A stretch of DNA of 47,942 nt from Acutalibacteraceae bacterium (GTDB lineage Bacteria; Bacillota; Clostridia; Oscillospirales; Acutalibacteraceae), in the NCBI GenBank assembly GCA_045587825.1, contig JAZNCY010000343.1:1-47942 (forward strand), given 5' to 3'. Positions 3,993 to 41,576 of the stretch are shown here, piece after piece. The number at the start of each line of letters is the position of its first letter. Positions within the stretch are counted from its first letter, which is position 1. Under the pieces are notes generated by a model. That model saw only the letters and a program-made list of their open reading frames with translations. It did not search any database and was not told where the DNA came from. Both the position numbers and the translations under genes were made by a program.

Positions 3993-4598
3993 TTATAAAT
4001 CCTCAGTTTTAAATGTAGTATAGCCCTCGTAGTAATAACTGTGGTCAATGCCTTTCATATAAACTTCACGGTCATTAATTTTTTCTGTAAGTGCATTTTT
4101 TAAAACATGCTTAATTTCTATATCTTTAATCGGGCTACGCTCCATAGCAAGTAGATAATCTTCTTTATCTACCTGACTCCAGTCAACAACCTTACCTAAT
4201 TCTTTTTTTAAGATACAATCAAGCCAGATTCTTGTACTTCTGCCATTGCCCTCTCTGAATGGATGAGCAATATTCATTTCAACATACTTTTCAATTATTT
4301 CGTCAAAAGTAGTTTGTGGCATTTTGTCAATATTTTCGAGTGCCGCTTCAAGATACATTATCGGCGCAAATCTGAAATTGCCTTTTGAAATATTCACTGT
4401 ACGAAGTTCACCAGCAAAATCATAAATGTCATCAAAAAGTGTTTTGTGAATTGCTTTTAAAGAATAAAATTTACCAGCTTCAAGCTTGTTGAGTTCTCCA
4501 CTTTCAAATAATTCCAAAGCTTTTTTCTTGCTGATTTTCTCCTCAGCTTCACTTAACTCAGGGGCACTTGTAATACCTAATTTATTTTCGAGTACCAT
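3993..4598 (-). CDS. fic: Fic-family AMPylase, class III (C-terminal auto-inhibitory helix)
   Basis: Fic active-site motif HPFREGNGRSTR. C-terminal SYYYEG matches the inhibitory [ST]xxxE[GN] motif. About 200 aa, like NmFic-type proteins. Confidence 0.88.
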   Translation of the reverse strand: MVLENKLGITSAPELSEAEEKISKKKALELFESGELNKLEAGKFYSLKAIHKTLFDDIYDFAGELRTVNISKGNFRFAPIMYLEAALENIDKMPQTTFDEIIEKYVEMNIAHPFREGNGRSTRIWLDCILKKELGKVVDWSQVDKEDYLLAMERSPIKDIEIKHVLKNALTEKINDREVYMKGIDHSYYYEGYTTFKTEDL

Positions 4599-7026: not shown

Positions 7027-8895
7027 TTAATTACTCCTTAAGTGAATTAATAATACTGAAATATCAGCTGGTGAAACACCACTTATTCTTGAAGCCTGTC
7101 CTACGTTTTCAGGTCTGATTTTTTCTAATTTTTCAATTGCTTCAAGTCTTAAATTTGTAATAGCCTTGTAGTCGATATCTTCTGGGATTTTCTTAACTTC
7201 AAGGCGTTTTAATTCATCAACCTGAGCTTTTTGCCTTTTAATGTAGCCTTCATATTTAAAGTTAATTTCAACCTGTTCAAACACTTCTTTTGCAATTTCA
7301 GGTCTGGTTTTATCAAAAGGTTCAAGTAATTTATAGGTTACTTGTGGACGTTTTAAAAGCTCTGACATTTTACAACCAGTTTTAAGTGGAGCAGTACCAG
7401 CTTCTTCCAAGACTTTGTTAAGCTCTTCACTCGGAGCTATTGAAGCTGAATTAACCCTCTCGGTTTCTTGCTTTATTTCTCGGATTTTTCTAAGAAGTGC
7501 ATCGTGGGCTTCTTCAGTTACAAGACCTATTTTATAGCCCATTTCTGTAAGTCTTAAATCGGCATTATCTTCTCTTAAAATAAGACGATATTCACTTCTT
7601 GAAGTCATCATTCTGTATGGGTCTGAGCATCCTTTTGTTACAAGGTCATCTATAAGAGTTCCAATATAAGAAGTGCTTCTGTCTAAAATAAATGGCTCTT
7701 TACCCTGTACCTTTAATGCGGCATTTATACCAGCAACAAGTCCTTGTGCAGCAGCTTCTTCATAACCAGAAGAACCGTTGAACTGACCTGCACCAAAAAG
7801 ACCCTCTAAGTCATTGAATTCTAAAGTTGATTTTAATGAAAGCGGATTAACACAATCATACTCGATAGCGTAAGCAGTTCTCATTACTTTTACGTTCTCG
7901 AGTCCTTTTACGCTTTTTAAAATCTGCAATTGAACATCTTCAGGGAGTGAAGATGAAAGCCCCTGTAAATACAATTCCTCAGTATCTAAACCACAAGGCT
8001 CAATAAACACCTGGTGGCGTTCTTTCTCGAAGAATCGCATAATTTTATCTTCAATACTCGGGCAATATCTCGGACCTGTACCCTCTATCTTTTTAGAATA
8101 GAGAGGAGAACGGTCTATATTATCCAAAATAATCTTTTTAGTTTTTTCGTTTGTATATGTAATATGACAAACTTCTTTATTTTCTAACTTATCGCTTGGA
8201 GTCGAGAAAGAGAATGGTGTAATTTCACTATCACCAATCTGCTCCTCGAGTTCAGAAAAATTAACACTGTTTCTGTTGACTCTTGGTGGAGTACCAGTTT
8301 TAAAACGTCTTAAATCAACGTTCAATTTATTTAAGTCGTCAGAAAGTGCATTTGATGGGAACATTCCATCAGGGCCACTTTCATAAGAAACATCGCCAAC
8401 GTAAACTTTACCCTTTAAGAAAGTACCAGTAGCAATAATAACTGTTTTTGCTTTGTAAACAGCTTCTAACTGAGTACTCATTTCCCAAAGACCATCATCT
8501 GTTTTATTAAGTGAAACAATTTCTGCTTGCTTTAAATCAAGATTTTCTTGATTTTCAAGACAATGCTTCATATATTTGGTGTATTCACGTCTGTCAATCT
8601 GTGCTCTTAATGAGTGCACAGCAGGACCTTTACCAAGATTTAAAATTCTGCTCTGAATTAAAGTAGCATCGGCAGCTTTACCCATTTCGCCACCTAAAGC
8701 ATCAATTTCTCTTACTAAATGACCTTTAGACGTACCGCCGATAGATGGGTTACACGCCATATTGCCAATCCAGTCTAAGTTAATTGTAAAAACAATAGTT
8801 GAAGCGCCAAGTCGTGCTGAAGCCAACGCCGCTTCAATACCAGCATGACCAGCACCTATAACCGCAACGTCATATTCTCCTGCAAAGTATTTCAT
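7027..8895 (-). CDS. mnmG: tRNA uridine 5-carboxymethylaminomethyl modification enzyme MnmG (GidA)
   Basis: FAD motif VIGAGHAGIEAA and full-length similarity to MnmG. Confidence 0.96.
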   Translation of the reverse strand: MKYFAGEYDVAVIGAGHAGIEAALASARLGASTIVFTINLDWIGNMACNPSIGGTSKGHLVREIDALGGEMGKAADATLIQSRILNLGKGPAVHSLRAQIDRREYTKYMKHCLENQENLDLKQAEIVSLNKTDDGLWEMSTQLEAVYKAKTVIIATGTFLKGKVYVGDVSYESGPDGMFPSNALSDDLNKLNVDLRRFKTGTPPRVNRNSVNFSELEEQIGDSEITPFSFSTPSDKLENKEVCHITYTNEKTKKIILDNIDRSPLYSKKIEGTGPRYCPSIEDKIMRFFEKERHQVFIEPCGLDTEELYLQGLSSSLPEDVQLQILKSVKGLENVKVMRTAYAIEYDCVNPLSLKSTLEFNDLEGLFGAGQFNGSSGYEEAAAQGLVAGINAALKVQGKEPFILDRSTSYIGTLIDDLVTKGCSDPYRMMTSRSEYRLILREDNADLRLTEMGYKIGLVTEEAHDALLRKIREIKQETERVNSASIAPSEELNKVLEEAGTAPLKTGCKMSELLKRPQVTYKLLEPFDKTRPEIAKEVFEQVEINFKYEGYIKRQKAQVDELKRLEVKKIPEDIDYKAITNLRLEAIEKLEKIRPENVGQASRISGVSPADISVLLIHLRSN

Positions 8896-13033: not shown

Positions 13034-13152
13034 AAAATCATCTCCTGATAGGAATTATATCACATCAAGTAGGAATTGTGAATACATAATAATTGACTTA
13101 TTTTCAAAAAGTGGATATAATAATTATGATAAAACATAGAAGGAGTGATAAT

Positions 13153-13491
13153 ATGTGCAATAAAAATCAAGCAATAGATATTTTAGGCGAAGTATACAAT
13201 GCTTGTAACCCCCTTTTCAATAACACTGTTAAAGATGCTTTCCTTTATGGTTCATTTGCACGTGGTGATTATCATTCTGAATCTGATGTTGATATATTAC
13301 TTACTGTGGATATACCTGCCGAAGAAATACCTAAGTACAGAAACTCACTTGCTTTAATAACAAGTGATTTGAGCTTAAAGCACGATGTAACAGTTTCAGT
13401 TACAGTTAAATCATATGAGCAATTTTCGAAATTTTCAAATGTTCAACCATTTTATATGAATGTTTTAAAAGAAGGTGTTAGATATGCATGA
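13153..13491 (+). CDS. Minimal nucleotidyltransferase (MNT) domain protein, antitoxin-like
   Basis: GSFARGDYHSESDVDILL NTase motif. ATG 13153 lies 7 nt after AGGAG. Confidence 0.82.
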   Translation: MCNKNQAIDILGEVYNACNPLFNNTVKDAFLYGSFARGDYHSESDVDILLTVDIPAEEIPKYRNSLALITSDLSLKHDVTVSVTVKSYEQFSKFSNVQPFYMNVLKEGVRYA

Positions 13492-13879
13492 GAATGAAAA
13501 GAAAGCGCTTTCAAATGCAAGATTTGAACATGCAAAAGAATGCTTAGATGCTGCTCAAAATCTGCTTGATTCTTACAATTATAAAAGTGCTGCAAATCGC
13601 TCATACTATGCAATATTTCATGCAATGAGAGCCGTTCTTGCTTTTGATGGAATCGATATGAAGCATCATAGTGGTATAATATCAGAATTTCGTAGGTTAT
13701 ATATAAAAACTGGAATTTTTGATGCAAAACTTTCGCAAATAATTTCAATTCTTTTTGATATCCGTACCGAAAGTGATTACGATGATTTTTTTATAATATC
13801 AAAACAAGAAGTTGAAGAGCAAATTGAAAACGCAAAATATTTCTTAAAAGAAATAGAACGATTTTTATTAACAAAATAA
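13484..13879 (+). CDS. HEPN domain protein, toxin-like partner of the upstream MNT
   Basis: All-helical, about 130 aa, HEPN-like sequence with IRTESDY near the C-terminal helix. ATG 13484 follows GAAGGTG and overlaps the MNT stop (ATGCATGA). Confidence 0.75.
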   Translation: MHENEKKALSNARFEHAKECLDAAQNLLDSYNYKSAANRSYYAIFHAMRAVLAFDGIDMKHHSGIISEFRRLYIKTGIFDAKLSQIISILFDIRTESDYDDFFIISKQEVEEQIENAKYFLKEIERFLLTK

Positions 13880-22160: not shown

Positions 22161-22200
22161 AAACCCCGTGATTTTTCATAAAATCACGGGGTTTATTTTT
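22161..22200. terminator. Bidirectional Rho-independent terminator between the methyltransferase gene and luxS
   Basis: 15-bp perfect stem 22161-22175 / 22180-22194, followed by TATTTTT. Confidence 0.8.
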
Positions 22201-22663
22201 AATAGTTATTTTCATAAATTAGCTTTTCAACTGTCCAGTTTTTAAGAACTTCACACTGGTCTTTACCTTCTTTTTTTGCACCCTCTAAATCGTGGTCACG
22301 ATAGTTACCACACTCAATAGCGCTGACACCTGGAATTTCACCCTCATAATCTGCAACAAATTTAAGAGCAGCTTTTGTAAGCGCCAAGGCATCTTCGTGA
22401 CTCATTTTTGTTGTTAAAAAGTAAAAGCCTGTTCTGCAACCCATAGGACCAAAATAAATAATATTATCTTTAAACTCACTGTTTCTTACAAATGTTGCAA
22501 AAAGATGCTCTAAAGTATGAATTGCACCATTTTCCATAACCTCTTCTACATTTGGCTTTCTTGTTCTTATATCATAAGTAACAACTTCACCATCAACACG
22601 AGAGATATACATACCTCTGTTTAATTTGTTGTGGTCAACTGTAAAGCTTGCAATTTTTTCCAT
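22199..22663 (-). CDS. luxS: S-ribosylhomocysteine lyase LuxS
   Basis: HTLEHL metal-binding motif, GCRTG, 154 aa. Confidence 0.95.
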   Translation of the reverse strand: MEKIASFTVDHNKLNRGMYISRVDGEVVTYDIRTRKPNVEEVMENGAIHTLEHLFATFVRNSEFKDNIIYFGPMGCRTGFYFLTTKMSHEDALALTKAALKFVADYEGEIPGVSAIECGNYRDHDLEGAKKEGKDQCEVLKNWTVEKLIYENNY

Positions 22664-22666
22664 AGC

Positions 22667-23128
22667 TTAAATTCCCGCCTTTTTCTCTCTTAAATTTTTA
22701 AAAAAACTTGTTAAAATTTCGCTACATTCGGTCTCTAAAATGCCACTCTCAAAATTAGGTTTGTGGTTAAATTCTAATTGAAACAAATTAACAACCGAAC
22801 CACAAGCGCCGTTTTTGTAGTCACTTGCACCGAAATATACGTTTTTGATTCTCGAATTTATAATAGCACCTGCACACATAGGGCACGGCTCTAATGTGAC
22901 ATATAAATCACACTTGAAAAGTCGCCAGCCACCTAAATTTTTACAGGCATTATTTATTGCCTCAATTTCAGCGTGGCAAAGTGCATTTTTTTCTGTTTCA
23001 CGTCTGTTTCTGCCTGTGCCAACGATTTTGCCATCACAAACAACAACTGCACCAACGGGAACTTCGCCTTCACTTGCTGATATTTCAGCAAGAAGAAGCG
23101 CCTCCTTCATAAAATCCTCGTGAGTCAT
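22667..23128 (-). CDS. tadA: tRNA-specific adenosine deaminase TadA
   Basis: CHAEIEAI and PCPMCAGA zinc-binding motifs. Confidence 0.94.
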   Translation of the reverse strand: MTHEDFMKEALLLAEISASEGEVPVGAVVVCDGKIVGTGRNRRETEKNALCHAEIEAINNACKNLGGWRLFKCDLYVTLEPCPMCAGAIINSRIKNVYFGASDYKNGACGSVVNLFQLEFNHKPNFESGILETECSEILTSFFKNLREKKAGI

Positions 23129-24252
23129 TACACTGCAACTCCCGAACCAAATGAAATCATTGAAATTGCCTGAATTAAAAATACTATAATTGCAATTATC
23201 ATTGCTGGTGCAAAAATGAATTTTGAAATTTTTTGCTTTAATGTGTATTCTTCCAAACCATTTTTAGAAATAATTCTATTGAATTCAGCTTTATATTTGC
23301 TTATATAAATAAGTAACGCTACAAAACCGAGACCTGCTAATGCAAGACAAACAAAGCTGTAAGCTGTATCTGCAGTTTCTTCATCTGTAAAATAAAGAAT
23401 TGTATAATAACAACAAGAAAGTCCATTTACAATAGCGTGAATTATAACGCCAGTCCAGATACTATCAGTTGCAATTACTGCATAGCCTAAAAACAATCCG
23501 CAGAGAATTGCAAAAGGAATTTGTGATGGAGTTCCGTGGAAAACACCAAAAACAATTGCTGAACAGATTATCGCAAACAAGTTGCCGTATTTTCTTAAAG
23601 GTTGCATTACAACGTTTCTCATTGCAAATTCTTCAACAAGAGGCGGTATAATAGCTGTACCGATAAACAATGCAATTATATCTATAACAGAATTTACCTG
23701 TGGTTCATCACCAGAAGAAAATGTGAAGCCAAAGCCCTCAAAGAATGTCTGAATAAAGCCTGTAACATACATTGAGGCAAGGCAACCTAAAACAGAAAGG
23801 AATATAATAGAAACTGTTTTTAAATTCGCTTTAGGTGCAGAATATGAGCAAACGGGCAAATCAGGTGTTTTATAAACTATTTTTTTTGCTATAAAGAACG
23901 GAATGCCTACGGTAAGTAATGAGTAAAAAATACCTACACTTGATGAAAAGGTTCCGTTTGAATAATACAAATCAATAAGTCCGAACGCTTCAAGTATTGC
24001 ACTAAAAAACATACTCGCAACTAAAAAGCCTAACATAGCAAGTGCAAATATTTTTGCAAAACGTCTTATTTCATTCTTCTGCTCACGAAGCTTTAAAAAT
24101 TTTTGCTGGCTTATATAGTACGCCTGCGGATTATTCTGGTAAACATACGGGTTGAATTGCCCCTGTGGTGCTTGATTGAAATTCGGATATTGATTAAAGC
24201 TCTGTTGCTGATTATGAAGCTCATATCTATTATTGTTCTGGTTATAATCCAT
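23128..24252 (-). CDS. CPBP-family intramembrane metalloprotease with a Q/N-rich N-terminal region
   Basis: EEFAMRN and FGVFHG motifs of the CAAX/Abi protease family. Polytopic. The first ~45 residues are dominated by Q, N, Y and P. Confidence 0.82.
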   Translation of the reverse strand: MDYNQNNNRYELHNQQQSFNQYPNFNQAPQGQFNPYVYQNNPQAYYISQQKFLKLREQKNEIRRFAKIFALAMLGFLVASMFFSAILEAFGLIDLYYSNGTFSSSVGIFYSLLTVGIPFFIAKKIVYKTPDLPVCSYSAPKANLKTVSIIFLSVLGCLASMYVTGFIQTFFEGFGFTFSSGDEPQVNSVIDIIALFIGTAIIPPLVEEFAMRNVVMQPLRKYGNLFAIICSAIVFGVFHGTPSQIPFAILCGLFLGYAVIATDSIWTGVIIHAIVNGLSCCYYTILYFTDEETADTAYSFVCLALAGLGFVALLIYISKYKAEFNRIISKNGLEEYTLKQKISKFIFAPAMIIAIIVFLIQAISMISFGSGVAV

Positions 24253-24292
24253 TTTTCATTCTCCAAAAAATTTTAATTATCTAAATTATAAC

Positions 24293-24490
24293 GATTATAG
24301 TTAGTCGAAACAGCGTAATTTTACGCTGTTTCGATACCAAATCATATATTTGGTATCGAATTTTCTTCGAAAATTCGACTATAATCCTTTCAATAACTGT
24401 AATGCAAAATTGTATTTATGAAAAACAATTTTGCTGAAAGCCGAAAAATCGGCTTTTGCGAAACGCAACTGCGTTTCGACTAATTACAGT
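24293..24490 (-). ncRNA. Unclassified, highly structured non-coding element: six perfect hairpins in two three-hairpin junction domains. Could be a leader RNA of the CPBP-tadA-luxS operon or a MITE-like DNA element; strand uncertain
   Basis: Closing helices 24293-24300/24379-24386 and 24396-24403/24483-24490. Hairpins H1-H6 are described in the findings. A minus-strand promoter lies immediately upstream. No match to any RNA family I recognise. Confidence 0.35.
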
Positions 24491-24491
24491 C

Positions 24492-24519
24492 ATTATAACA
24501 CATTACATAAAAATATCAA
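24492..24519 (-). promoter_or_regulatory. Candidate strong sigma-A promoter reading into the hairpin array and the CPBP-tadA-luxS operon
   Basis: Minus strand TTGATA (24514-24519), 16 nt, TATAAT (24492-24497), with an upstream TGT extension. Confidence 0.5.
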
Positions 24520-24562
24520 CAAATAAATTATTTCTTATTTTTTAATTTTAATATTTTTATTG

Positions 24563-24591
24563 TTGAATATATCGTTAAAACATTGTATAAT
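24563..24591 (+). promoter_or_regulatory. Candidate sigma-A promoter of zapA-dut
   Basis: TTGAAT (24563-24568), 17 nt, TG-extended TATAAT (24586-24591), about 40 nt upstream of the zapA ATG. Confidence 0.6.
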
Positions 24592-24631
24592 TATAGCAAT
24601 TCGTTGAACAGGTTTTAGAAAGGGTGTTTTT

Positions 24632-24982
24632 ATGGAAAAAACAAAGCATACAGTCAAGGTTGCAGGCTTCTCATTCAAGGTTGTTTCTGAGGATTCTTCT
24701 GAATATATGTCTGCTTTAGCAAGAGAGGTAGATTTAAAGATAGATGCGCTTTTAAAGAACAGCACACTTTCTACAACTCAGGCAGCAGTTGCAGTGGCAC
24801 TTGACTATGCAGATACAGTAAAAAAGAACGATTCTTCAACCGAAAGCTTAAAAACACAGCTCAAAGAAAGTCTTCAGGATGTTGCTGTTGCAAGAAAAGA
24901 AGCTGACTTTTACAAAAGAGAATTAGAAAGATTACAGGGTAGCAAAATAGAAGAAAACAAAGAAAACCCTGCACTTTGGTGA
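24632..24982 (+). CDS. zapA: Cell division protein ZapA
   Basis: ZapA-like N-terminal domain (VKVAGFSFKVVSEDSSEYMSALAREVD) followed by a coiled coil. RBS AAAGGGTG. Confidence 0.85.
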   Translation: MEKTKHTVKVAGFSFKVVSEDSSEYMSALAREVDLKIDALLKNSTLSTTQAAVAVALDYADTVKKNDSSTESLKTQLKESLQDVAVARKEADFYKRELERLQGSKIEENKENPALW

Positions 24983-25434: not shown

Positions 25435-25710
25435 AGGGTGAAAGAAGTTATCCGAACCTGCCTAAAAGCGAGTATTTTTAAGTCTTTTCGGCGTTTCGGT
25501 CTTGCAAGGCGACAGCCTTCCTTCACCCTCAACACCAAAAATCCAATAAAAACCTTTCGCTTTGTAGGTCGAAGATTTTTTATAGAACGGATTTATGGTC
25601 AATCAAGGCAAAAACGGAGCGAATCCTTTACGGATTTGCGAGTATTTTAACGAAGAGTGAACGGAAATCCGTCTATAAAAAACACGGTTCGGATAATTCC
25701 TTTCACCCCC
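25435..25710 (+). ncRNA. Unclassified structured element between dut and mnmE, bounded by 23-bp imperfect terminal inverted repeats. Candidate mnmE leader RNA or MITE-like element
   Basis: 25436-25458 pairs with 25686-25708 (21 Watson-Crick pairs, 1 G-U, 1 mismatch). Alternative pairing 25435-25447 with 25517-25529. 18-bp helix 25576-25594/25665-25682. G-U pairs favour the plus strand. Confidence 0.35.
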
Positions 25711-25725
25711 ATTGGAGATGTAATT

Positions 25726-27090
25726 TTGTCAACAATATCAGCAATAGTAACACCACAAACCGCCGCAGGTATTGGCATTGTAAGACTTTCTGGTGAAGAT
25801 GCCATTAAAATTGCAGACAAGGTTTTTAAGGGTGTATCAGGCAAAAAAATAGAAGAAAAAAACGGCTACACAGCACTTTTTGGTCACGTGTATGATGGCG
25901 ATGACGTTATTGACGAAGCAGTTGCACTTCTTTTCAGAGCACCAAAAAGCTATACTGGTGAGGATGTTGTAGAATTCAGTTGCCACGGCGGTCTTTATAT
26001 ACTTTCACGTGTTTTAAGGGCTACATTTAACGCTGGTGCAGTTCCTGCAGAGCCAGGTGAATATACAAAAAGAGCGTTTTTAAATGGTAAAATGGATTTA
26101 TCTGAAGCAGAGGCAGTTATGTCACTTATTTCTGCTACTGGTGAAGATGCACGTGCAGCAACGCTCAACGCTTTAGATGGTAATTTAAGCAGAGAAATAA
26201 CAGAATGCCGTGATTCTCTTGCAAGAACAGCAGCATTTTTAGCAGCTTGGGTAGATTACCCTGACGAAGAAATTCCAGAAATCAGTAACGAAGAAATGAT
26301 TTCTTCATTTTCTGATGTTTTGAGAAGATTAGAAACACTTTTAGATGGCTTTGATGCAGGTCAGGCGATTTTAGAAGGTATTGACACAGCAATTGTCGGC
26401 AGACCAAACGTTGGTAAGAGCACGCTTTTAAATGCACTCACTGGCAGAAACAGAGCAATAGTTACTTCAGTTGCCGGTACTACCCGTGACGTTTTAGAAG
26501 AAACTGTAAGACTTGGCAACATCACTTTAAGACTTGCTGACACGGCTGGTATCCGTACTGAAACCGATGATGAAATTGAAAAAATCGGTGTAGAAAGAGC
26601 AAAAGAGCGTTTCGAAAGAGCTGGTCTTGTATTTATGGTGCTTGATGGTGGCGAAAAGATTTCAGAAGATGACAAAGAGCTTTTAAAGCTTTGCAAGGAT
26701 AAACGTAGCATTGTTATTGTTAATAAAAGTGACTTGAACAGAGCATTTTCTGTTGATGAAATAAAAGATTATGCTGAAAATATAGTAGAAATTTCAGCCA
26801 AAGAAAATGATGGTATTGATAAATTAAAGCAGATTGTAGAAAGTGTTGTTGGTACTGATAACTTTAACCCATCTGCTCCACTTTTGACTACTGAAAGACA
26901 AAGAGCTTGTGTCTCAAAAGCAGTTGAAAATTTAAGAGAAGCATTAAACGGCTTAGAAATCGGCATTACAACGGATGCTATAAACGTTTCAGTTGACTGT
27001 GCTATTGAAGAGCTTTCTGTTTTAACAGGTGAAAAAGCAACAGAAACAGTCGTAAACGAAGTATTTAAAAACTTCTGTGTAGGTAAATAA
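25726..27090 (+). CDS. mnmE: tRNA modification GTPase MnmE (TrmE)
   Basis: N-terminal TISAIVTP..GIGIVRLSG, G1 motif GRPNVGKSTLLN, C-terminal FCVGK. TTG start at 25726 lies 8 nt after GGAG; the ORF-track start at 25657 falls in the structured leader. Confidence 0.93.
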   Translation: MSTISAIVTPQTAAGIGIVRLSGEDAIKIADKVFKGVSGKKIEEKNGYTALFGHVYDGDDVIDEAVALLFRAPKSYTGEDVVEFSCHGGLYILSRVLRATFNAGAVPAEPGEYTKRAFLNGKMDLSEAEAVMSLISATGEDARAATLNALDGNLSREITECRDSLARTAAFLAAWVDYPDEEIPEISNEEMISSFSDVLRRLETLLDGFDAGQAILEGIDTAIVGRPNVGKSTLLNALTGRNRAIVTSVAGTTRDVLEETVRLGNITLRLADTAGIRTETDDEIEKIGVERAKERFERAGLVFMVLDGGEKISEDDKELLKLCKDKRSIVIVNKSDLNRAFSVDEIKDYAENIVEISAKENDGIDKLKQIVESVVGTDNFNPSAPLLTTERQRACVSKAVENLREALNGLEIGITTDAINVSVDCAIEELSVLTGEKATETVVNEVFKNFCVGK

Positions 27091-27283: not shown

Positions 27284-28132
27284 TCAATTCAATTCGATTG
27301 TTTCAAGTGTTTCCATTATAACAGGCTTTTCATTAGGTTTAGAAATTCTTACAACATACTCAAAATATTCGTCTGTTTCGCTTTTTGCTGTATCTGCTTC
27401 AATCCCTGCTCGTCTGATGCTATCAACAGCGTGGTTTAAAGTGTTTATAAAAATTCTCATATCCTTAAAAACCTTAATAGGTGGTTTAGATGGTTCTTTT
27501 CTTCGTCTTAAAATATCTTTTATAAGACGCTCAGATTCACTTACAGTAAGGTGTCTTTCTATTATAATATCAAGCGCTCTGTTTCTTGCTGAATTATCTG
27601 GCAATGTAAGAAGCGCTCTTGCGTGACGCTCGGTTAAAGAGGCAATTACAATTTTATCACGCATATCTTCTGGCAATCTTAAAAGACGTAATTTATTTGA
27701 AAGTGTAGATTGTGCCTTGCCTAATTTTCTGCCGATTTCTTCCTGAGAGAGATTATGCTCTGTCATAAGTCTTTCTATTGCAACGGCTTCTTCAAAAAAA
27801 TCTAAATTCTGGCGTTGCACGTTTTCAATTATTGCAAAGAGTGCCGATTGCTCGTCTGAAACGTCCATTACAATACAAGGTATTTTTGTAATTCCTGTAA
27901 TTCTTGCAGCCCTGAGTCTACGTTCACCAGAAATAAGCTCGTACTTTTCGTTATCTAACGGGCGAACGTTTATGGGTTGTAAAATTCCGTTTGCTCTTAT
28001 TGAAGAAGCAAGATTTTCAAGCTCTATGTAATCAAAACGAACTCTTGGTTGATGTGGATTAGGGTAAATATTTTCGTGTGGGATAAGCTGAATCTGACAA
28101 TTCGCCTTTCCTCTGGTAGATGATTTTAACAT
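27284..28132 (-). CDS. noc: ParB-family protein of the nucleoid occlusion (Noc/YyaA) type
   Basis: ParB box GERRLRAA, HTH region, and a C-terminal region resembling B. subtilis Noc (KVFKDMRIFINTLNHAVDSIRRAGIE...EYVVRISK). Located next to rsmG. Confidence 0.8.
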   Translation of the reverse strand: MLKSSTRGKANCQIQLIPHENIYPNPHQPRVRFDYIELENLASSIRANGILQPINVRPLDNEKYELISGERRLRAARITGITKIPCIVMDVSDEQSALFAIIENVQRQNLDFFEEAVAIERLMTEHNLSQEEIGRKLGKAQSTLSNKLRLLRLPEDMRDKIVIASLTERHARALLTLPDNSARNRALDIIIERHLTVSESERLIKDILRRRKEPSKPPIKVFKDMRIFINTLNHAVDSIRRAGIEADTAKSETDEYFEYVVRISKPNEKPVIMETLETIELN

Positions 28133-28269: not shown

Positions 28270-28983
28270 TTAAAGAGGTTTTTTCGCTATTTGTGCAGAA
28301 ACTCGTGGATATTTTGTCGGAATTTGCGAAATCTTTTTAATCTTTATTATATTTCTTTCGCCCTGTGAGCATAAATCGAAGCAGAATTTATCTTCAATTT
28401 TACCTGAAAGCACCTTGAGTGCATTCTCTGCATTCTCAATTTCAAGCTCTGCCAAAGCACCTTTCATAGAAACAAAGTAGCCACCCTGTTTTACAAATGG
28501 TAAGCAATATTCTGAAAGAACTCTTAATTCTGCAACTGCTCTTGCCGTAGCAAAATCGAATTGCTCTCTGTATTCCTTCTTTTGTCCTGCTTCTTCTGCT
28601 CTCATATTAAGAATTTCGTAATTCTTAAGCCCCATTTTTTCTGCAATATCTGCCACAACCTTTAATTTTTTACCAGTTGAATCAAGCAAAGTAACCTTTA
28701 CATCACTTCTTGCAGCAGCAATTACGAGTCCTGGGAAGCCTGCACCAGTGCCGACATCAATTATTTTTGAATTCTCAGGAATATCAACGTATTTTAAAAG
28801 CATTAAGCTATCTATAAAATGCTTTATTGCAATACCCTCATCATCTTTGATGGCGGTAAGGTTTATTTTTTCGTTCCATTCCTTTAATTCTTTTGCATAA
28901 ATTTCTAACTTTTCAATTAATTCTTGGGATATTTCTAATCCAACAATTTCTGCATTGTCTTTAATAATGCTTTTTATAGCCAT
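28270..28983 (-). CDS. rsmG: 16S rRNA (guanine527-N7)-methyltransferase RsmG (GidB)
   Basis: SAM motif DVGTGAGFPGL and full-length RsmG similarity. Confidence 0.93.
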   Translation of the reverse strand: MAIKSIIKDNAEIVGLEISQELIEKLEIYAKELKEWNEKINLTAIKDDEGIAIKHFIDSLMLLKYVDIPENSKIIDVGTGAGFPGLVIAAARSDVKVTLLDSTGKKLKVVADIAEKMGLKNYEILNMRAEEAGQKKEYREQFDFATARAVAELRVLSEYCLPFVKQGGYFVSMKGALAELEIENAENALKVLSGKIEDKFCFDLCSQGERNIIKIKKISQIPTKYPRVSAQIAKKPL

Positions 28984-35275: not shown

Positions 35276-36700
35276 TCAGCCTTTAAGAATTTCTTTATAC
35301 ATTTTAATGTATTCGTTTGCAGATTTGCCCCAGCTGTTATCACTTTCCATAGCACGTTTAACAAGGATTTTCCAACCCTTTTTGTCGCTATAGCCCTCGC
35401 ACGCTCTTCTTATAGCGTGAAGCATTTCGTGGGCATTATAATTTGCAAATGTAAAGCCGTTACCTTCATTGTCACCACTATCTTTAACAGAGTCACGAAG
35501 ACCACCTGTTTCACGAACAATCGGAATTGAACCGTAACGAAGAGCAACCATCTGTGAAAGACCACAAGGCTCACTCTTTGAAGGCATTAAGAAAAGGTCA
35601 GAACCAGCATAGATTTTTCTTGCCAAATCCGGAATAAAGCCTAAGCAAAGACCAACTTGTTCCGGGAAACGAGCTGCAAGACCTCTGAAGAAATCTTCAT
35701 ACTCTGTGTCACCCGAGCCTAAAATTACAAGCTGAATATCTGTTGTAGCCAAAAGCTCATCTAAAACTGCTTTACATAAATCAAGACCTTTATGTGAAAC
35801 AAGACGTGTAACCATACCCATAACAGGTGTATCTTTCTTTTCAGGAAGACCAAAGAATTTTTGTAATTCTCTCTTATTTGTTGCTTTACCAGTCATTTTT
35901 TCAGCTGAATAATTCTTGAAAATATCCTTATCGGTTTCAGGGTTGTAGTTTTCAACATCAATACCATTAAGGATACCACGTAATTTAAAGCTACGCTCTT
36001 TAAGAATTGTATCAAGACCGTGAGAATACCAAGGGTCAAGAATTTCTTTAGCGTAAGAAGGGCTAACAGTTGAAACTGCATTAGCGCATTCAATAGCAGC
36101 CTTTGAGAAGTTTACTGTATCATCATATTCAATGAGATTCTTCTGACTATAATCAAGACCTACAACATTATCAATAAGCTCTTTGCCGTAAACACCCTGA
36201 TATTGAATATTATGAATTGTGAAAACAGTTTTAATGTTTTCATAACCTGGCTGGGTAGCATAAATTGTGCTGTAATAAAGTGGAGTCAACGCTGTCTGCC
36301 AGTCATTACAATGAATGATATCCGGCTTAAAGTCAATGTGTGGAATAATCTCTAAAATAGCACGTGAGAAGAATGCAAAACGCTCTGCATCATCATAATG
36401 ACCATAAAGACTACCACGCTTGAAGTAGTATTCATTATCTAAAAGATAATATGTAACTCCGCCATATTTTGCCTCAAAAATACCACAGTATTGTCTTCTC
36501 CAGGCAACTGGTACAGAAATATTTGTAATGAACTTCATTGTATCTCTGAGCTCTTGTTTAATTGTATCGTAAAGTGGCATTACTACTCTGCAACCTATAA
36601 GGCGTTTTCTTAATGCTTGTGGCAAAGACCCTGCAACATCTGCAAGACCGCCACTCGCAGCAAATGGTAATGCTTCACTCGCAGCATATAAAACTTTCAT
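35276..36700 (-). CDS. glgA: Glycogen synthase GlgA
   Basis: N-terminal KVLYAASEALPFAASGGLADV and GT5 similarity. Confidence 0.95.
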   Translation of the reverse strand: MKVLYAASEALPFAASGGLADVAGSLPQALRKRLIGCRVVMPLYDTIKQELRDTMKFITNISVPVAWRRQYCGIFEAKYGGVTYYLLDNEYYFKRGSLYGHYDDAERFAFFSRAILEIIPHIDFKPDIIHCNDWQTALTPLYYSTIYATQPGYENIKTVFTIHNIQYQGVYGKELIDNVVGLDYSQKNLIEYDDTVNFSKAAIECANAVSTVSPSYAKEILDPWYSHGLDTILKERSFKLRGILNGIDVENYNPETDKDIFKNYSAEKMTGKATNKRELQKFFGLPEKKDTPVMGMVTRLVSHKGLDLCKAVLDELLATTDIQLVILGSGDTEYEDFFRGLAARFPEQVGLCLGFIPDLARKIYAGSDLFLMPSKSEPCGLSQMVALRYGSIPIVRETGGLRDSVKDSGDNEGNGFTFANYNAHEMLHAIRRACEGYSDKKGWKILVKRAMESDNSWGKSANEYIKMYKEILKG

Positions 36701-36726
36701 CGTAATCTCTCCTTATAATGATATTT

Positions 36727-37269
36727 TTATAAAATGGACAGAAGCTGTGAAAGTGATTCGTAAAGCCCTGATGCAAAAAATATAATTGCAAGTACGATTA
36801 CTAAAACAACAGGAAGTCCTAACTCAATAACCATTTTTATGAGCTGACTCTTCTTGTATTTTGAAAAATCACCTTCAAGCTTTTCTAATCGCTTTAAAAG
36901 ATTGTTATACTGGTCAACCGAAATGCCCGGTGTACCACTTGAAAGGTTTGCTGGTACGTTAACATCACGTTTGATACTGTTAAACTGAGACTCTATTGCC
37001 CCAGTGCTTACAGCTTCATTTGTTTCTGGTGCAAACTTGCTTTTCATAGCATTTAATGCAACCGAAATATTCTGTGGTCTTGATGGTACTTCCTTTTCCA
37101 ATACAGAAGAAAGCCATCTTACCTGTGCTGTAGAAGGAGTTTCGTCACTATAAAGCTTTTTAATCTGCTTTTCACAGAATGAACAAACCATTTCTTCATT
37201 TTTTTCTATTGTGCATAACACAAAATCGAGTTCGTCGGTTTTGCATCCACAAACAGGACAAACGCTCAT
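36727..37269 (-). CDS. Zinc-ribbon protein with a C-terminal transmembrane helix, unknown function, embedded in the glg operon
   Basis: CPVCGC...CSFC cysteine pairs at the N-terminus. Hydrophobic LGLPVVLVIVLAIIFFASGL near the C-terminus. Confidence 0.6.
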   Translation of the reverse strand: MSVCPVCGCKTDELDFVLCTIEKNEEMVCSFCEKQIKKLYSDETPSTAQVRWLSSVLEKEVPSRPQNISVALNAMKSKFAPETNEAVSTGAIESQFNSIKRDVNVPANLSSGTPGISVDQYNNLLKRLEKLEGDFSKYKKSQLIKMVIELGLPVVLVIVLAIIFFASGLYESLSQLLSIL

Positions 37270-37310
37270 AACTTTATATCCCTTTCGAATTATAACAATT
37301 CAGATTGATG

Positions 37311-38429
37311 TTAAATAACAATATTTTTACCAACAATAAACGGATAGCTCTTATCACCTGAAAGATTTTTATTAGGTGTAATAACTGAATCCTTATCCAT
37401 AATAACACAGTTAAGCTTAACGTTTTCACTTATTACAGAATCCTGCATAATAATTGAATTTTCAACAACTGCGCCACGTGCTATATTAACACCTCTGAAA
37501 ACAACACAGTTTTTAACAGTACCTTCAATAATGCAACCGTCAGCAACAAGAGAATTTTCTACTTTACTGTTAACGCCATAACGAACAGGCATATCGTTAC
37601 GTACTTTTGTGTAAATAGGTCTGTCTTTATTAAATAAATCTTTTCTTGTGTCTTTCTCTAAAAGAGCCATATTAGCTTCAAAATATTTGTTTACGCTATC
37701 AATTTCACAGCCCCAGCCTGTAAATTCATAACCATAAATATTAAGATGATCAACGTTCTTCTGAAGAATATCTTTTTCGAAGTTTTTAGCTCCAGCACTT
37801 AAAGCATCTGCAACTAAAGACTCTAACAATGCTTTTCTTATAAGCACCATACCTGTATTGAAGTTAACGTTTTCTTTGTTTTGTGGATTTACTGCAATAG
37901 CTGTTACCTTGCCGTTGCCATCAACTGTTAATGACGTCATATTTTCAAGTTCAGGAAGATTGCCCTTTTTATAAACAATAGTTATATCTGCGTCTTTTTC
38001 TGAATGGAAATCGAAAACTTCACTTAAATCAATATTGCAAATGAAGTTTGTATCAGAAAGAATAACGTATTGCTCATTACAGGATTTAATAAAACTGCTT
38101 ATTCTACCAAGCACCTCTACTGTATTTGAAGAGTCTTGCTCAGTGTGAGTTGGATTGAATGGTGGTAAAAGATAAAGACCATCAACCTTTCTTGCTAAAT
38201 CCCAAGGTCTGCCGTTACCAACGTGGTCCATAAGTGAACGGAAGTGACTGTTTGTAATAACGCCAACTTTTGTTATACCGCTGTTTACGAAATTAGAAAG
38301 AACAAAGTCTATAAGACGGTATCTGCCACCATAAAGCATTGAACCCATTGTTCTTCTTTGTGTAAAATCTTTAAGACAAGAATCGTATGAGTTTGAATAA
38401 ACTATACCGAGAACATTTTTTGGCATCAT
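37311..38429 (-). CDS. glgD: Glucose-1-phosphate adenylyltransferase subunit GlgD
   Basis: GlgC paralogue lacking the LAGGxGxRL motif. Left-handed beta-helix C-terminus. Overlaps the glgC stop by 4 nt. Confidence 0.88.
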
Positions 38430-39649
38430 ACTGTCTGACCCCCTTTCACATCTTGAGCAATTGTTGTTTTTGCTTTTATTTTTGCATCTTTACCAATAGT
38501 AACGTCCGCACCAATTACGCTAACGCCCCACTCGTCAAGATTTTCTGACTTTTCTGGATTTTCGCCTACAACTGCACCCTCTTCAATAACTGCATTTTCT
38601 GCAACTATTGAGTACTGAACAACTGCACCCTTTTTAATAACTGCGCCTGGCATTACGATTGAGTAATGAACAGAGGCACCCTCTTCAACAGTAACATCTG
38701 AGAAGAGTACTGAATAATCAACGTCACCCTCAATTTCACAGCCTTCGGCAACTATTGAATTCTCAACCTTTGCTTTGTCCGAAATATATTGTGGTGCAGA
38801 AGAATCGCTTCTTCCGTAAATCTTCCAGGAATCATCTGCTAAATCGATATTTGCTTTTGGATTAAGAAGGTCTAAGTTTGCTTCCCAGAGAGAGTCAATA
38901 GTACCAACGTCTTTCCAGTAGCCATCAAATGCATAAGCGAAAAGTCTTTCACCAGCCTCGTGCATTGCAGGAATAACGTTTTTACCAAAGTCGTTTGATG
39001 AATCAGGATTGTTTTCGTCATCTATGAGATATTGACGAAGCTTTTCCCAGGTGAACATATAAACACCCATTGAAGCTTTATTGCTCTTTGGCTCTTTTGG
39101 TTTTTCTTCAAATGCTGTGATTCTGCCATCCTCATCTGTAAACATAAGACCAAAACGAGAAGCTTCCTCCCACGGCACCTCAAGCATTGCTATTGTACAA
39201 GCAGCATCCTTTTCTTTATGGTATTTAAGCATTTCTGAATAATCCATTTTATAAATATGGTCACCAGAAAGAATTGCAACATATTCTGGGTTATATCTGT
39301 CAATAAAATGAATATTCTGATAAATTGCGTTTGCTGTACCTTTATACCATTCCTGACCATTAAGAGCCTGATATGGTGAAAGCACGTGAACACCGCCACC
39401 GATTTCACGGTCTAAATCCCAAGTGCTACCACTACCTATGTAATCGTTGAGCACAAGTGGTTGATATTGAGTCAAAACACCAACTGTTGAAATACCTGAG
39501 TTAGTGCAGTTAGATAACGGGAAGTCAATAATTCTGTATTTACCCCCGTAAGGAACTGCAGGTTTTGCAATATTTTTTGTAAGAACGCCAAGACGAGAGC
39601 CCTGACCACCAGCTAAAAGCATAGCTATACATTCAGTTCTTTTTGCCAT
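38426..39649 (-). CDS. glgC: Glucose-1-phosphate adenylyltransferase GlgC
   Basis: [10 protein letters not shown] motif. ATG 39647-39649 chosen over the ORF-track start at 39676. Confidence 0.93.
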
Positions 39650-41576
39650 TGTTTTTACATTCCTTTCCATCTTCATTTTTAGTTTTATTTTGTTTAAGTT
39701 TTAAATATATTGTTGTTAATGGTGGTAATTTTAACTCTATTGACTGCTGATATTCACCATAAGGCTCATTGAGAGTTTTATAAGTCTTTTTGATTTTTTC
39801 GCCTGTACCACCGAATTTCTCCGAATCAGAGTTAAAGATTATCTCGTAAGTACCTTTTTCTGGAACACCTATTTTATAAACAGGACGACCAACTGTTGTG
39901 AAGTTACAGACCGCTATAACCTTATCTTTATTTTCATCAGTTCTGACAAACGCTATAACTGAATTGTTATTATCATCACTGACTAACCAGTTAAAGCCCT
40001 CCCAGCTATAATCCACCTGCCAGAATGGCGCCGTTTTTTTATAGAAGAGATTAAGCTCTTTTATATAAGTCTGAAGATTCCTGTGTGCTTCGTAATCAAG
40101 AAGAAGCCAGTCAAGACCTTTTTTGTAATCCCATTCTATAAACTGACCAAATTCAGTACCCATGAATAAAAGCTTTTTACCAGGGTGAGCATACATATAA
40201 CCTAAAAATGCTCTTACGCCTGCAAATTTTTCTTCGTAACTGCCTGGCATTTTATTTATAAGTGAACATTTGCCGTGAACTACCTCGTCGTGCGAAATAG
40301 GAAGCACAAAGTTCTCTGAAAATGCATAGAAGAATGAAAACGTAATTAAATCGTGGTTGAATTTCTTGTGGATACCCTCCATTGAAAAATATCTTAAAAT
40401 ATCATTCATCCAACCCATATTCCATTTAAAGTTGAAGCCTAAGCCCCCTGCATAAACAGGCTTTGAAACGAGCGGCCACGCTGTGCTTTCTTCTGCAATC
40501 ATACATACGTCAGGAAAATCCTTGAACACTGCTTCATTAAGCTCTTGTAAAAACTCAACTGCCTCGTAGTTTTTGTTTCCGCCATCTTTATTTGCTATCC
40601 AGTGGCCATCGTCTCTGCCATAGTCAAGATAAAGCATTGAAGCAACCGCATCTACACGAAGACCATCTATGTGATATTCCTGAAGCCAGAAGCAAGCGTT
40701 TGAGATAAGAAAGCTTTTTACCTCGTTTCTGCCAAAGTCAAACACCTTCGTTCCCCACCCTAGATGCTCGCCTTTTCTTATATCGTCATATTCGTAACAC
40801 GCCTCGCCATCAAAGTTAGAGAGTCCGTGCGCATCCTTAGGAAAATGTGCCGGTACCCAGTCAAGAATAACACCGATACCTGCTTTATGACACTCATCTA
40901 TAAGATATTTTAAATCATCTGGTGTGCCATAGCGTGACGTTGCTGAAAAATAACCTGTTACCTGATATCCCCACGAGCCGTCAAACGGATATTCAGAAAG
41001 AGGCATCATTTCAATATGAGTGTAGCCCATCTTTTTAACGTAAGGCACTAACTCTTTTGCTAAATCACGATAGCTTAAAAAGTTGCCGTCATCATATTGC
41101 TTCCACGAGCCCAAGTGCATTTCATAAATATTGACCGGTGACTTGTAGATTGAAGTTTTCTTTCTTTCTTCTAACCATTTGCTGTCACGCCATTTATAAT
41201 TGCTTCTGAATATTTTTGAAGCTGTTCCAGGTCTTGTTTCTGAATGAACTGCATAAGGGTCTGCTTTAAAATGCCTTTCACCTTTTGAATCAATTATCAA
41301 AAACTTATAAGCATTAAATTCTTTAACATTCTTAACGTAAGCCTCCCAGCAGCCTGCTTCGTTAAGCTTTGTCATTATAGAAGCATTTTCATCCCAACCG
41401 TTAAAGTCACCCACAACTCTTACAGAAGAGGCGTGTGGTGCCCACACTCTGAAAACGAACTCTTCTTTTCCTACTTCGTGTGCTCCAAAAAATTCCTGAG
41501 CACGATAGTTCTTGCCTAAATGGAAAATGTAAATAGGAAAATCGTTAGGATTAACTTCCGTTTCTTTTATTTTCAA
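39633..41576 (-). CDS. glgB: 1,4-alpha-glucan branching enzyme GlgB
   Basis: CBM48 plus GH13 catalytic regions ([26 protein letters not shown]). TTG start after GGGGTGA. Confidence 0.93.

Follow-up and report, generated by a model that had tools for sequence, protein, structure and literature searches.

Is the dense array of hairpins that precedes the CPBP-tadA-luxS operon of an uncultured Acutalibacteraceae bacterium a regulatory RNA, or is it a piece of DNA with a history of its own? The array occupies positions 24293-24490 of contig JAZNCY010000343.1 (assembly GCA_045587825.1), whose 47,942 nt (G+C content, 35%) were analyzed over their full length and are referred to below as the window. 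An initial annotation had described six consecutive hairpins (H1 to H6), grouped by two closing helices into two tandem domains and joined by a competing long-range helix, and had interpreted them as a novel leader or switch RNA, with a MITE-like DNA element (MITE, miniature inverted-repeat transposable element) as the fallback. The first of these proposals fails, as many similar sequences that share the inverted termini and the insertion site are dispersed elsewhere, and empty sites exist at the locus itself. The second is borne out by the same multicopy spread, inverted termini, insertion site and empty sites: the segment is very probably a copy of a non-autonomous, non-coding MITE-like element of ~205 bp, whose family is widespread in uncultured Acutalibacteraceae and Clostridia of the ruminant gut.

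Alleles of the CPBP-zapA spacer

The element sits within a 379-bp spacer that separates two divergently transcribed gene groups, with the gene for a CPBP-family protease on one side and zapA on the other. Ten metagenome contigs that encode exactly the ZapA protein of the window, in the same flanking DNA, were retrieved by protein look-up (fetched loci are cited here by number, L001 and onwards); a look-up of the exact CPBP protein found none on record. Alignment of the ten contigs revealed that the length of the CPBP-zapA spacer varies among them. The spacer is empty in L008, which reads AAATTATAAC|ACATTAC across the site, and also in L003 and L005, which carry a second flank haplotype (B). 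The full element is present in L006 and in L057, the orthologous locus of JAZNUL01, the metagenome-assembled genome (MAG) that represents the species of the window. An internally deleted copy is found in L001 and L002, where H1 to H4 and half of H5 were lost between two CGAAA repeats, and L010 retains only a remnant consisting of the last 18 nt of the right end, fused to the left flank via TAATTA microhomology. Clean empty sites, which the initial annotation had suggested looking for, are present in strains with identical ZapA. Because the spacer occurs in empty, full, deleted and remnant alleles, the structure represents an insertion polymorphism of a single species or of very close relatives, and not a conserved part of the leader.

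The same spacer has undergone other small changes. In another strain (L004:534-690), a different small insert, GGTGACGGGAGCCGAACACC, is found in the element's place; it contains a short hairpin (TTAAGGTG...CACCTTAA) with TTAA on both sides and may have been left by another mobile element using the same AT-rich spot, either as its footprint or as a mini-copy. A tandem duplication of 12 bp, TTAGTTATCTAA, directly adjoining the insertion site on its left, was identified in L003:1829-1970, L005:79-220 and L057:1640-1975, that is, in empty as well as filled alleles, and is absent from the window (24272-24284) and from L008. This duplication and the deletion variants, taken together, mark the spacer as a hot spot for small rearrangements.

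Dispersed copies in related genomes

A scan of one genome per species with the degenerate terminus GAYTRTARTTAGTCGAAA yielded at least 119 stretches in genome contigs, and the matches listed came from 66 assemblies after exclusion of five chance matches. Nearly all host assemblies among the matches listed are MAGs of Acutalibacteraceae, Clostridia or Oscillospiraceae, obtained from gut samples of sheep, goat, cattle, buffalo and similar. At least nine contigs with the pattern belong to JAZNUL01 and at least eight to JAXJYT01. Contigs often end at a match, which is what a repeat that disrupts assembly would produce. The five excluded matches (Flavobacteriales, Nitrospirota, Chamaesiphon, Prolixibacteraceae and a roe-deer rumen bin) agree with the 18-mer only and have no element behind it. 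In metagenomes, the same pattern was found in 113 further stretches, 107 of them with the extended terminus.

A BLAST search with the window copy identified 44 near-full-length copies with 82-96% identity. Their flanks are unrelated, except for a few orthologous insertions in sister species (e.g., L091/L026 and L034/L048), and column diversity drops from 0.70 outside the element to 0.09-0.30 within it. Copies adjoin unrelated genes, for example those coding for an ABC-F ATPase, a two-component system, a glycosidase or a MATE transporter, and all 55 copies with open reading frames (ORFs) on both sides are intergenic (17 between divergent, 31 between tandem and 7 between convergent genes). The BLAST search, which the initial annotation had proposed as a count of copies, and the terminus scan thus agree on dispersed copies, both in the source species and in several dozen of its relatives. 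No other copy is located within the 48-kb window, and no match was obtained in plasmid or phage collections (blastn, distant mode). A single pattern match in IMG/VR (L130) lies within a coding sequence and is attributed to chance.

Termini and insertion site

The window copy is bracketed by an 8-bp direct repeat, ATTATAAC (24285-24292 and 24492-24499), which had been overlooked in the initial annotation. The features of the two ends are:

24285-24292: left ATTATAAC, including flank TT (24286-24287), the possible duplication AT (24288-24289) and the start of the element, AAC (24290-24292)
24492-24499: right ATTATAAC, including the end of the element, ATT (24492-24494), the possible duplication AT (24495-24496) and flank AA (24497-24498)
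24290-24311, plus strand: left terminal inverted repeat, AAC-GATTATAG-TTAGTCGAAAC, corresponding to the invariant columns G21-G41 of an alignment of 41 sequences (A1)
24473-24494, minus strand: right terminal inverted repeat, reverse complement AAT-GACTGTAAT-TAGTCGAAAC

The boundaries used here (24290-24494) assume a 2-bp AT duplication, and a model without duplication would shift each side by 2 nt. The core AAY-GATTRTAG-TTAGTCGAAAC is kept at both ends of the 44 copies. The wider imperfect inverted repeat that had been described around the segment was recovered as well, with 26-nt arms (24286-24311 and 24473-24498) that are 85% complementary.

A sequence logo was derived from 131 distinct outer flanks, with positions counted relative to the G of GATT. 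Positions -5 to -2 read ATAA in ~99% of cases, position -1 is C or T, and positions -7 and -6 are T in ~80%, with background composition beyond; the commonest flank hexamer is TTATAA (80 of 131). Duplication models were checked on filled and empty alleles of the two flank haplotypes and on this logo. Both haplotypes are compatible with any symmetric duplication of 0, 2 or 4 bp. The TA target duplication considered in the initial annotation, which is typical of IS630/Tc1, fails as a symmetric model at both empty-site haplotypes. Duplications of 6 bp (TTATAA) and 8 bp (ATTATAAC) are incompatible with haplotype B, with the flank variation, or with both, and a 4-bp TATA duplication is disfavored because A stands at -6 in ~17% of the ends while the partner position is invariant. 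The best reading places the insertion at the center of TT|AT|AA and has either 0 or 2 bp (AT) duplicated.

In the mechanism proposed here, copies would insert at the center of the AT-rich palindrome TT|AT|AA. Because the ends of the element carry both halves of the target (AAY... and ...RTT), every insertion regenerates TTATAA at both ends; the recreated target would be available for a next insertion, which would lead to abutted copies and thereby to a dimer. Any TATAAT-like -10 box struck by the element would be recreated in the same way.

Dimeric organization

The internal features of the window copy are:

24290-24494: the putative mobile element, 205 bp, a dimeric MITE-like repeat of subfamily A, with no ORF of 40 aa or more
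24290-24389: monomer 1, with outer end GATTATAG (24293-24300) and inner end CTATAATC-CTT (24379-24389)
24305-24334, 24331-24359 and 24356-24378: hairpins of monomer 1, H1 (14 bp), H2 (12 bp) and H3 (10 bp), all perfect
24390-24391: spacer TC, 2 bp between the abutted inner ends of the monomers
24392-24494: monomer 2, with inner end AAT-AACTGTAAT (24392-24403) and outer end ATTACAGTC-ATT (24483-24494)
24404-24434, 24437-24456 and 24459-24478: hairpins of monomer 2, H4 (10 bp), H5 (8 bp) and H6 (9 bp), all perfect
left and right closing helices: 8 bp each, perfect
24301-24311/24473-24483: competing pairing, 11 bp, perfect

The center reads CTATAATC-CTT-TC-AAT-AACTGTAAT, and the family consensus has AAT-GACTGTAAT as the final segment of this center. 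This junction, ATC-CTT-TC-AAT-(A/G)AC, mirrors a junction of two ends across 2 bp, ATC-ATT-AT-AAT-GAT. As read from the sequence, the central junction is a right end followed by a 2-bp spacer and a left end, that is, two abutted termini. Two monomers of ~100 bp thus make up the 205-bp unit as a dimer, and in each of them short inverted termini (core AAY-GATTRTAG) surround three hairpins.

Two features of the initial annotation take on a different meaning in this context. The closing helices pair as described and are re-read as monomer termini, GATTATAG pairing with CTATAATC on the left and ACTGTAAT with ATTACAGT on the right. The competing long-range helix also pairs as described, and the switch that had been deduced from it is abandoned since the helix equals the outer terminal inverted repeat common to all copies. 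In a folded single strand, the termini of each monomer would pair with each other to form the closing helix, and the outer termini (22-26 nt) would pair over long range.

Monomers also occur on their own: the left monomer in L017 and the right monomer in L124 represent independent insertions with TTATAA on both sides. In L015 and L056, full copies abut with a single shared ATTATAAT junction. Because of these two loci, the regenerated TTATAA at an element end is seen to serve as a target, which provides a simple origin for the dimer. Shorter derivatives consisting of the ends and one hairpin were identified in L109, L113, L051 and L031. In a second subfamily (B), the left monomer is the counterpart of subfamily A's right monomer in inverted orientation.

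Fold of the segment

All helices quoted in the initial annotation were found at their positions as perfect Watson-Crick inverted repeats, with neither mismatches nor G-U pairs. The statement that almost every base is paired proved a mild overstatement, as the helices hold 150 of 198 bases (76%). Among 16 perfect hairpins in the 48-kb window with a stem of at least 9 bp, four lie inside the element. Minimum-free-energy folds of both strands recovered the two-domain architecture in which a closing helix surrounds three hairpins each. As RNA, the plus strand folds with -83 kcal/mol (z -12.9) and the minus strand with -88.9 kcal/mol (z -12.3), and none of 200 shuffled sequences was as good in either case; the DNA fold of the element has a z of -14.2. 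A search of the whole window against Rfam gave no match at the gathering score, in agreement with the reported lack of likeness to known RNA families. Weak matches (E <= 10) within 24150-24700 are considered noise, including an Enterococcus small RNA (sRNA), EF3314_EF3315, with 21.6 bits against a cut-off of 100, and the best sub-threshold match, Plastid-psbM, with 27.4 bits against a cut-off of 52.7.

Conservation of the fold

Several observations weigh against the reading as a MITE-like element. A classical target-site duplication is not demonstrable, as a duplication of at most 2 bp in a palindromic target is inseparable from the inverted termini; the per-genome copy counts are lower bounds from fragmented MAGs; and neither the 232 fetched loci nor the window yielded an autonomous element whose termini match. 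The other points concern the fold. In alignment A1, in which 95% of cells pair, changes on both sides were found in 23 of 75 pairs, compared to 6.7 +/- 1.8 in column shuffles and 6-11 in slid registers. Stems are three times less variable than loops (0.09 vs. 0.30, p = 5e-7), and three subfamilies whose stem sequences differ retain the architecture of six local hairpins, whereas a typical MITE forms one long hairpin by pairing of its termini. Simple decay of selfish DNA does not predict such conservation of a fold, for which a structure-level constraint or hairpin-templated repair may be responsible.

Subfamilies B (e.g., L043:5452-5666) and C (L056:172-392) adopt the same double three-hairpin fold, with z of -12.7 and -10.4, respectively, and subfamilies share less than ~70% sequence identity. 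It might be argued that the element is a decaying MITE whose perfect stems are a by-product of intrastrand template switching, i.e., quasi-palindrome correction, in which case the compensatory changes would be meaningless. Quasi-palindrome correction is an established mutational mechanism, and a DNA-templated process predicts stems that are Watson-Crick only, with no preference for G:T, as is the case here. In the window copy, none of the 75 pairs is non-Watson-Crick, even though 11 of its positions differ from the family consensus, three of them in stems, where all three preserve or improve pairing. The other copies have 1-20 such pairs (mean, 5.2 of 75; this comparison is biased, as the structure was defined on the window copy), so any correction would be inefficient. 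Moreover, template switching leaves unexplained why the number, order and spacing of the hairpins are kept across three subfamilies, and long-range closing helices covary over ~90 nt, as in pair 131/220 of the closing helix of monomer 2 (AU in 31 and GC in 8 sequences). Template switching as the sole source of the stems is thus only a minor possibility.

A further question is whether the fold acts as RNA or as DNA. Stem mismatches that result from a single transition comprise 49 G:T and 45 A:C, and this parity argues against a functional RNA because an RNA would tolerate G:U and not A:C. In tandem gene contexts, nine copies share the orientation of the neighboring genes and 13 are opposite. 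Together with the lack of Rfam matches and the dispensability of the element at the locus, the mismatch parity and the lack of an orientation preference argue against a strand-specific functional RNA. The proposal of a dedicated cis-regulatory RNA, i.e., a two-state riboswitch-like leader or an sRNA that controls CPBP-tadA-luxS by exchanging the 11-bp helix for H1 and H6, can draw on the stability of the minus-strand fold, on a strong promoter reading into it, on the two mutually exclusive pairings and on the compensatory changes among copies. It has to be set against strains of identical ZapA whose spacer lacks the structure, and against the presence of the structure at well over 100 unrelated intergenic sites. 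Empty sites and dispersed copies have already refuted an RNA specific to this locus, and a dedicated regulator of any such kind is very improbable.

Perfect palindromes are also typical of binding sites for dimeric proteins, and origin-proximal genes (mnmG, mnmE, rsmG and noc/parB) are located nearby, which could point to a protein-binding array or cruciform DNA with a chromosomal role in nucleoid organization or replication. The six palindromes differ from each other in sequence, and differ again between subfamilies, so that they contain no common motif; in addition, the element occurs in many unrelated contexts and is dispensable in conspecific strains. A chromosomal function of this type is hardly credible.

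The observed conservation may stem from selection on a folded single strand during mobilization, from an RNA-level benefit on either strand, or from hairpin-templated repair. It is conceivable, though unlikely, that the double four-way-junction fold is itself selected, in which case the repeat would be a structure-dependent mobile element, either single-stranded DNA moved by an enzyme not linked to MITEs, or a mobile RNA module.

Candidate mobilizing enzymes

For the MITE-like element favored here, a transposase recognizing the termini would mobilize the copies in trans. Fuzzy pairs of terminal repeats at a distance of 300-5000 bp were searched for in the 232 loci. The four candidates (L026, L127, L164 and L226) enclose housekeeping genes or nothing and are attributed to chance. 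Clustering of 621 neighboring ORFs revealed no recurrent neighbor other than ordinary paralogous families (ABC-F, response regulator/kinase, oxidoreductase, glycosidase and MATE). Pfam/NCBIfam annotation of the window ORFs of at least 110 aa identified no transposase, and in metagenomes there were 0 matches to the terminus when the next base had to be a non-MITE one. Many accepted MITEs are likewise without a known autonomous partner.

By its behavior, the element resembles IS30, which generates 2-bp target duplications, prefers nearly palindromic hot-spot targets and inserts beside its own inverted repeats (IRs), giving rise to abutted IR-IR junctions (PMC9333248). The parallel comprises the duplication of at most 2 bp, the TTATAA palindrome and the abutted ends in the center of the element and in L015 and L056, and is one of behavior only: no IS30-family transposase was found adjoining any fetched copy or carrying the element's termini. 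An IS30-family-like enzyme is therefore suggested as the mobilizer with low confidence, and other enzymes might produce an identical footprint, for instance serine recombinases with crossover at a dinucleotide.

Alternatively, the element might move as folded single-stranded DNA, in a REP/BIME-like or "TIRtron"-like manner, by an HUH tyrosine transposase (RAYT/TIRYT, IS200/IS605) for which the hairpins are recognition structures. Such mobilization has been proposed for the REP/BIME/REPIN class (PMC3733652; PMC2817692), and RAYT-like genes flanked by long or double-palindromic inverted repeats, themselves dispersed repeats, provide a precedent (PMC3733652). In favor of this route, the six-hairpin fold is kept in subfamilies A, B and C, compensatory changes are enriched, stems are less variable, and the symmetry of G:T and A:C mismatches fits DNA better than RNA. 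The element shares with REP/BIME/REPIN sequences the dispersed intergenic palindromes, the hairpin mosaics in alternating orientation and a GTAG-like tag near the first hairpin; the GTAG/ATAG of its terminus lies 4 nt before the first stem (GATTGTAG-TTAG-TCGAAAC). REPs, however, are GC-rich sequences of 20-40 bp that lack both a defined target and inverted termini of the duplex type, whereas the element is an AT-rich sequence of 100-205 bp with symmetric ends, specificity for TTATAA and long, perfect, AT-rich stems (hairpins with 30-55% GC). Its duplex-type ends and symmetric target also differ from the asymmetric, strand-specific insertion of IS200/IS605 and REP 3' of a tetranucleotide, and the fetched loci contained neither a Y1-transposase-like gene flanked by repeats nor any gene bracketed by two ends. 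Transposition as folded single-stranded DNA by an enzyme of this type is decidedly unlikely.

Promoter and leader of the operon

The features on the operon side of the spacer are:

23128-24252, minus strand: gene for a CPBP-family intramembrane protease, the first gene downstream of the element on this strand
22667-23128, minus strand: tadA, after the CPBP gene
22199-22663, minus strand: luxS, after tadA
24492-24519, minus strand: sigma-70-type promoter of CPBP-tadA-luxS, with -35 TTGATA (24519-24514), 16-nt spacer, TG, and -10 TATAAT (24497-24492)
24285-24290, minus strand: second, gene-proximal -10-like hexamer TATAAT, created at the left end (minus-strand sequence CTATAATCGTTATAATTTAG)

On the plus-strand side of the spacer, zapA, dut and mnmE are followed farther on by a noc/parB-like gene and rsmG. 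A consensus scan recovered both sites that had been noted: on the minus strand, the promoter at 24519 to 24492, which is close to consensus with 11 of 12 matches, and, at 24563-24591, a promoter-like site for zapA. The same operon promoter is intact in the empty-site allele L008; it is the operon's own promoter and predates the element. The insertion point falls within its -10 hexamer, and the terminal ATT of the element rebuilds TATAAT (24497 to 24492); the element would thus have landed in the -10 hexamer of CPBP-tadA-luxS and restored it. In agreement with the initial annotation, this promoter would fire into the element: transcription would begin inside the right terminus and cross the whole element, yielding a leader of ~230 nt as judged from the predicted start. 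Most likely, the operon would still be transcribed from its own promoter, with a 5' leader that is ~205 nt longer and strongly structured.

The second TATAAT (24290 to 24285) has no recognizable -35 upstream, and the consensus scan lists no promoter-like site there. The same type of scan predicted no promoter inside the element and no terminator-like site on its minus strand. Only H2 is terminator-like, and it is so on the plus strand, which is irrelevant to the minus-strand operon; a promoter or terminator carried by the element was thus rejected.

Comparison with described elements

Prokaryotic MITEs are short, AT-rich, intergenic sequences with terminal inverted and direct repeats and stable folds that do not encode a transposase (PMC10969869; PMC3184786). 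The element is of corresponding size (205 bp, compared to about 50-500), lacks an ORF, and has terminal inverted repeats, dispersed copies and filled as well as empty sites. Like the MITEs Correia/NEMIS, RUP, Nezha and QMITE, it is AT-rich and intergenic, has subfamilies, internal-deletion derivatives and a stable fold, and is often located in promoter regions. Unlike these MITEs, it has no known parent insertion sequence, its duplication is at most 2 bp in TTATAA compared to clear duplications of 2-9 bp, and it consists of two four-way junctions formed from six local hairpins, arranged as a fixed dimer.

The nearest described analog in Firmicutes is bcr1 of the Bacillus cereus group (Group A repeats), a strain-variable interspersed repeat of ~155 bp with short flanking direct repeats (PMC3184786). 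Compensatory changes keep its "cruciform-like" fold, in which the stem-loops are independent, and it has been viewed as a special mobile class with no identified transposase (PMC3184786). The direct repeat of bcr1 measures 5 bp, its stem-loops number two, and its transcription is known; the element has a duplication of 0-2 bp and six hairpins and is dimeric. No sequence similarity to bcr1 was observed, although a direct comparison against bcr1 sequences was not made. The searchable literature contained no description of the terminal sequence or the repeat family that we could find, only unrelated short-sequence matches.

Other features of the window

Two nucleotidyltransferase/HEPN pairs of the MNT-HEPN toxin-antitoxin type are encoded at 1915-2710 and 13093-13879; the first consists of a helix-turn-helix (HTH)-fused Pol-beta nucleotidyltransferase and a HepT-like protein, the second of NTP_transf_2 and HEPN proteins. 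A Fic/DOC gene is located at 3993-4598. Origin-proximal genes that are usually contiguous are split: mnmG (7027-8895) lies ~17 kb from mnmE (25657-27090) on the opposite strand, with sugar-utilization, transporter and toxin-antitoxin genes between them, and the noc/parB-like gene and rsmG are found at 27284-28132 and 28270-28983. The mechanically called mnmE ORF starts at GTG 25657 (477 aa), and gene calls in related contigs have 454 aa; judging from these, the true start is probably ~23 codons downstream.

The longest perfect hairpin of the window (22161-22194; 15-bp stem AAACCCCGTGATTTT...AAAATCACGGGGTTT) is located between a convergent methyltransferase gene and luxS and resembles a standard intrinsic terminator acting in both directions. 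A complete glycogen synthesis cluster on the minus strand (35276-41576) comprises a branching enzyme, two ADP-glucose pyrophosphorylase-like subunits and a starch synthase, and an unannotated ORF of 180 aa (36727-37269) lies amid it.

Implications

The identification of the segment as a MITE-like element removes a tempting false positive, namely a riboswitch-like RNA upstream of luxS. The family also fragments MAG assemblies, with many copies at contig ends, and will be a recurring source of spurious structured-RNA candidates in these genomes. It goes beyond the textbook MITE in the regeneration of TTATAA and of the -10 box, in a fixed dimer formed by insertion beside a copy end, and in the conservation of its fold across subfamilies. 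At the locus described here, the CPBP-tadA-luxS leader exists in natural variants (empty, full, half-deleted and remnant) that could be compared for luxS/autoinducer-2 (AI-2) expression.

Should mobility or effects on mRNA turn out to depend on the fold, the family would serve well as a model of how small mobile elements rewire promoters and leaders. An element selected for its fold that inserts into TTATAA sequences and -10 boxes and rebuilds them would be able to spread through promoters without killing them. As a mobile RNA module, it would be retained by its hosts for reshaping 5' leaders and intercistronic regions.

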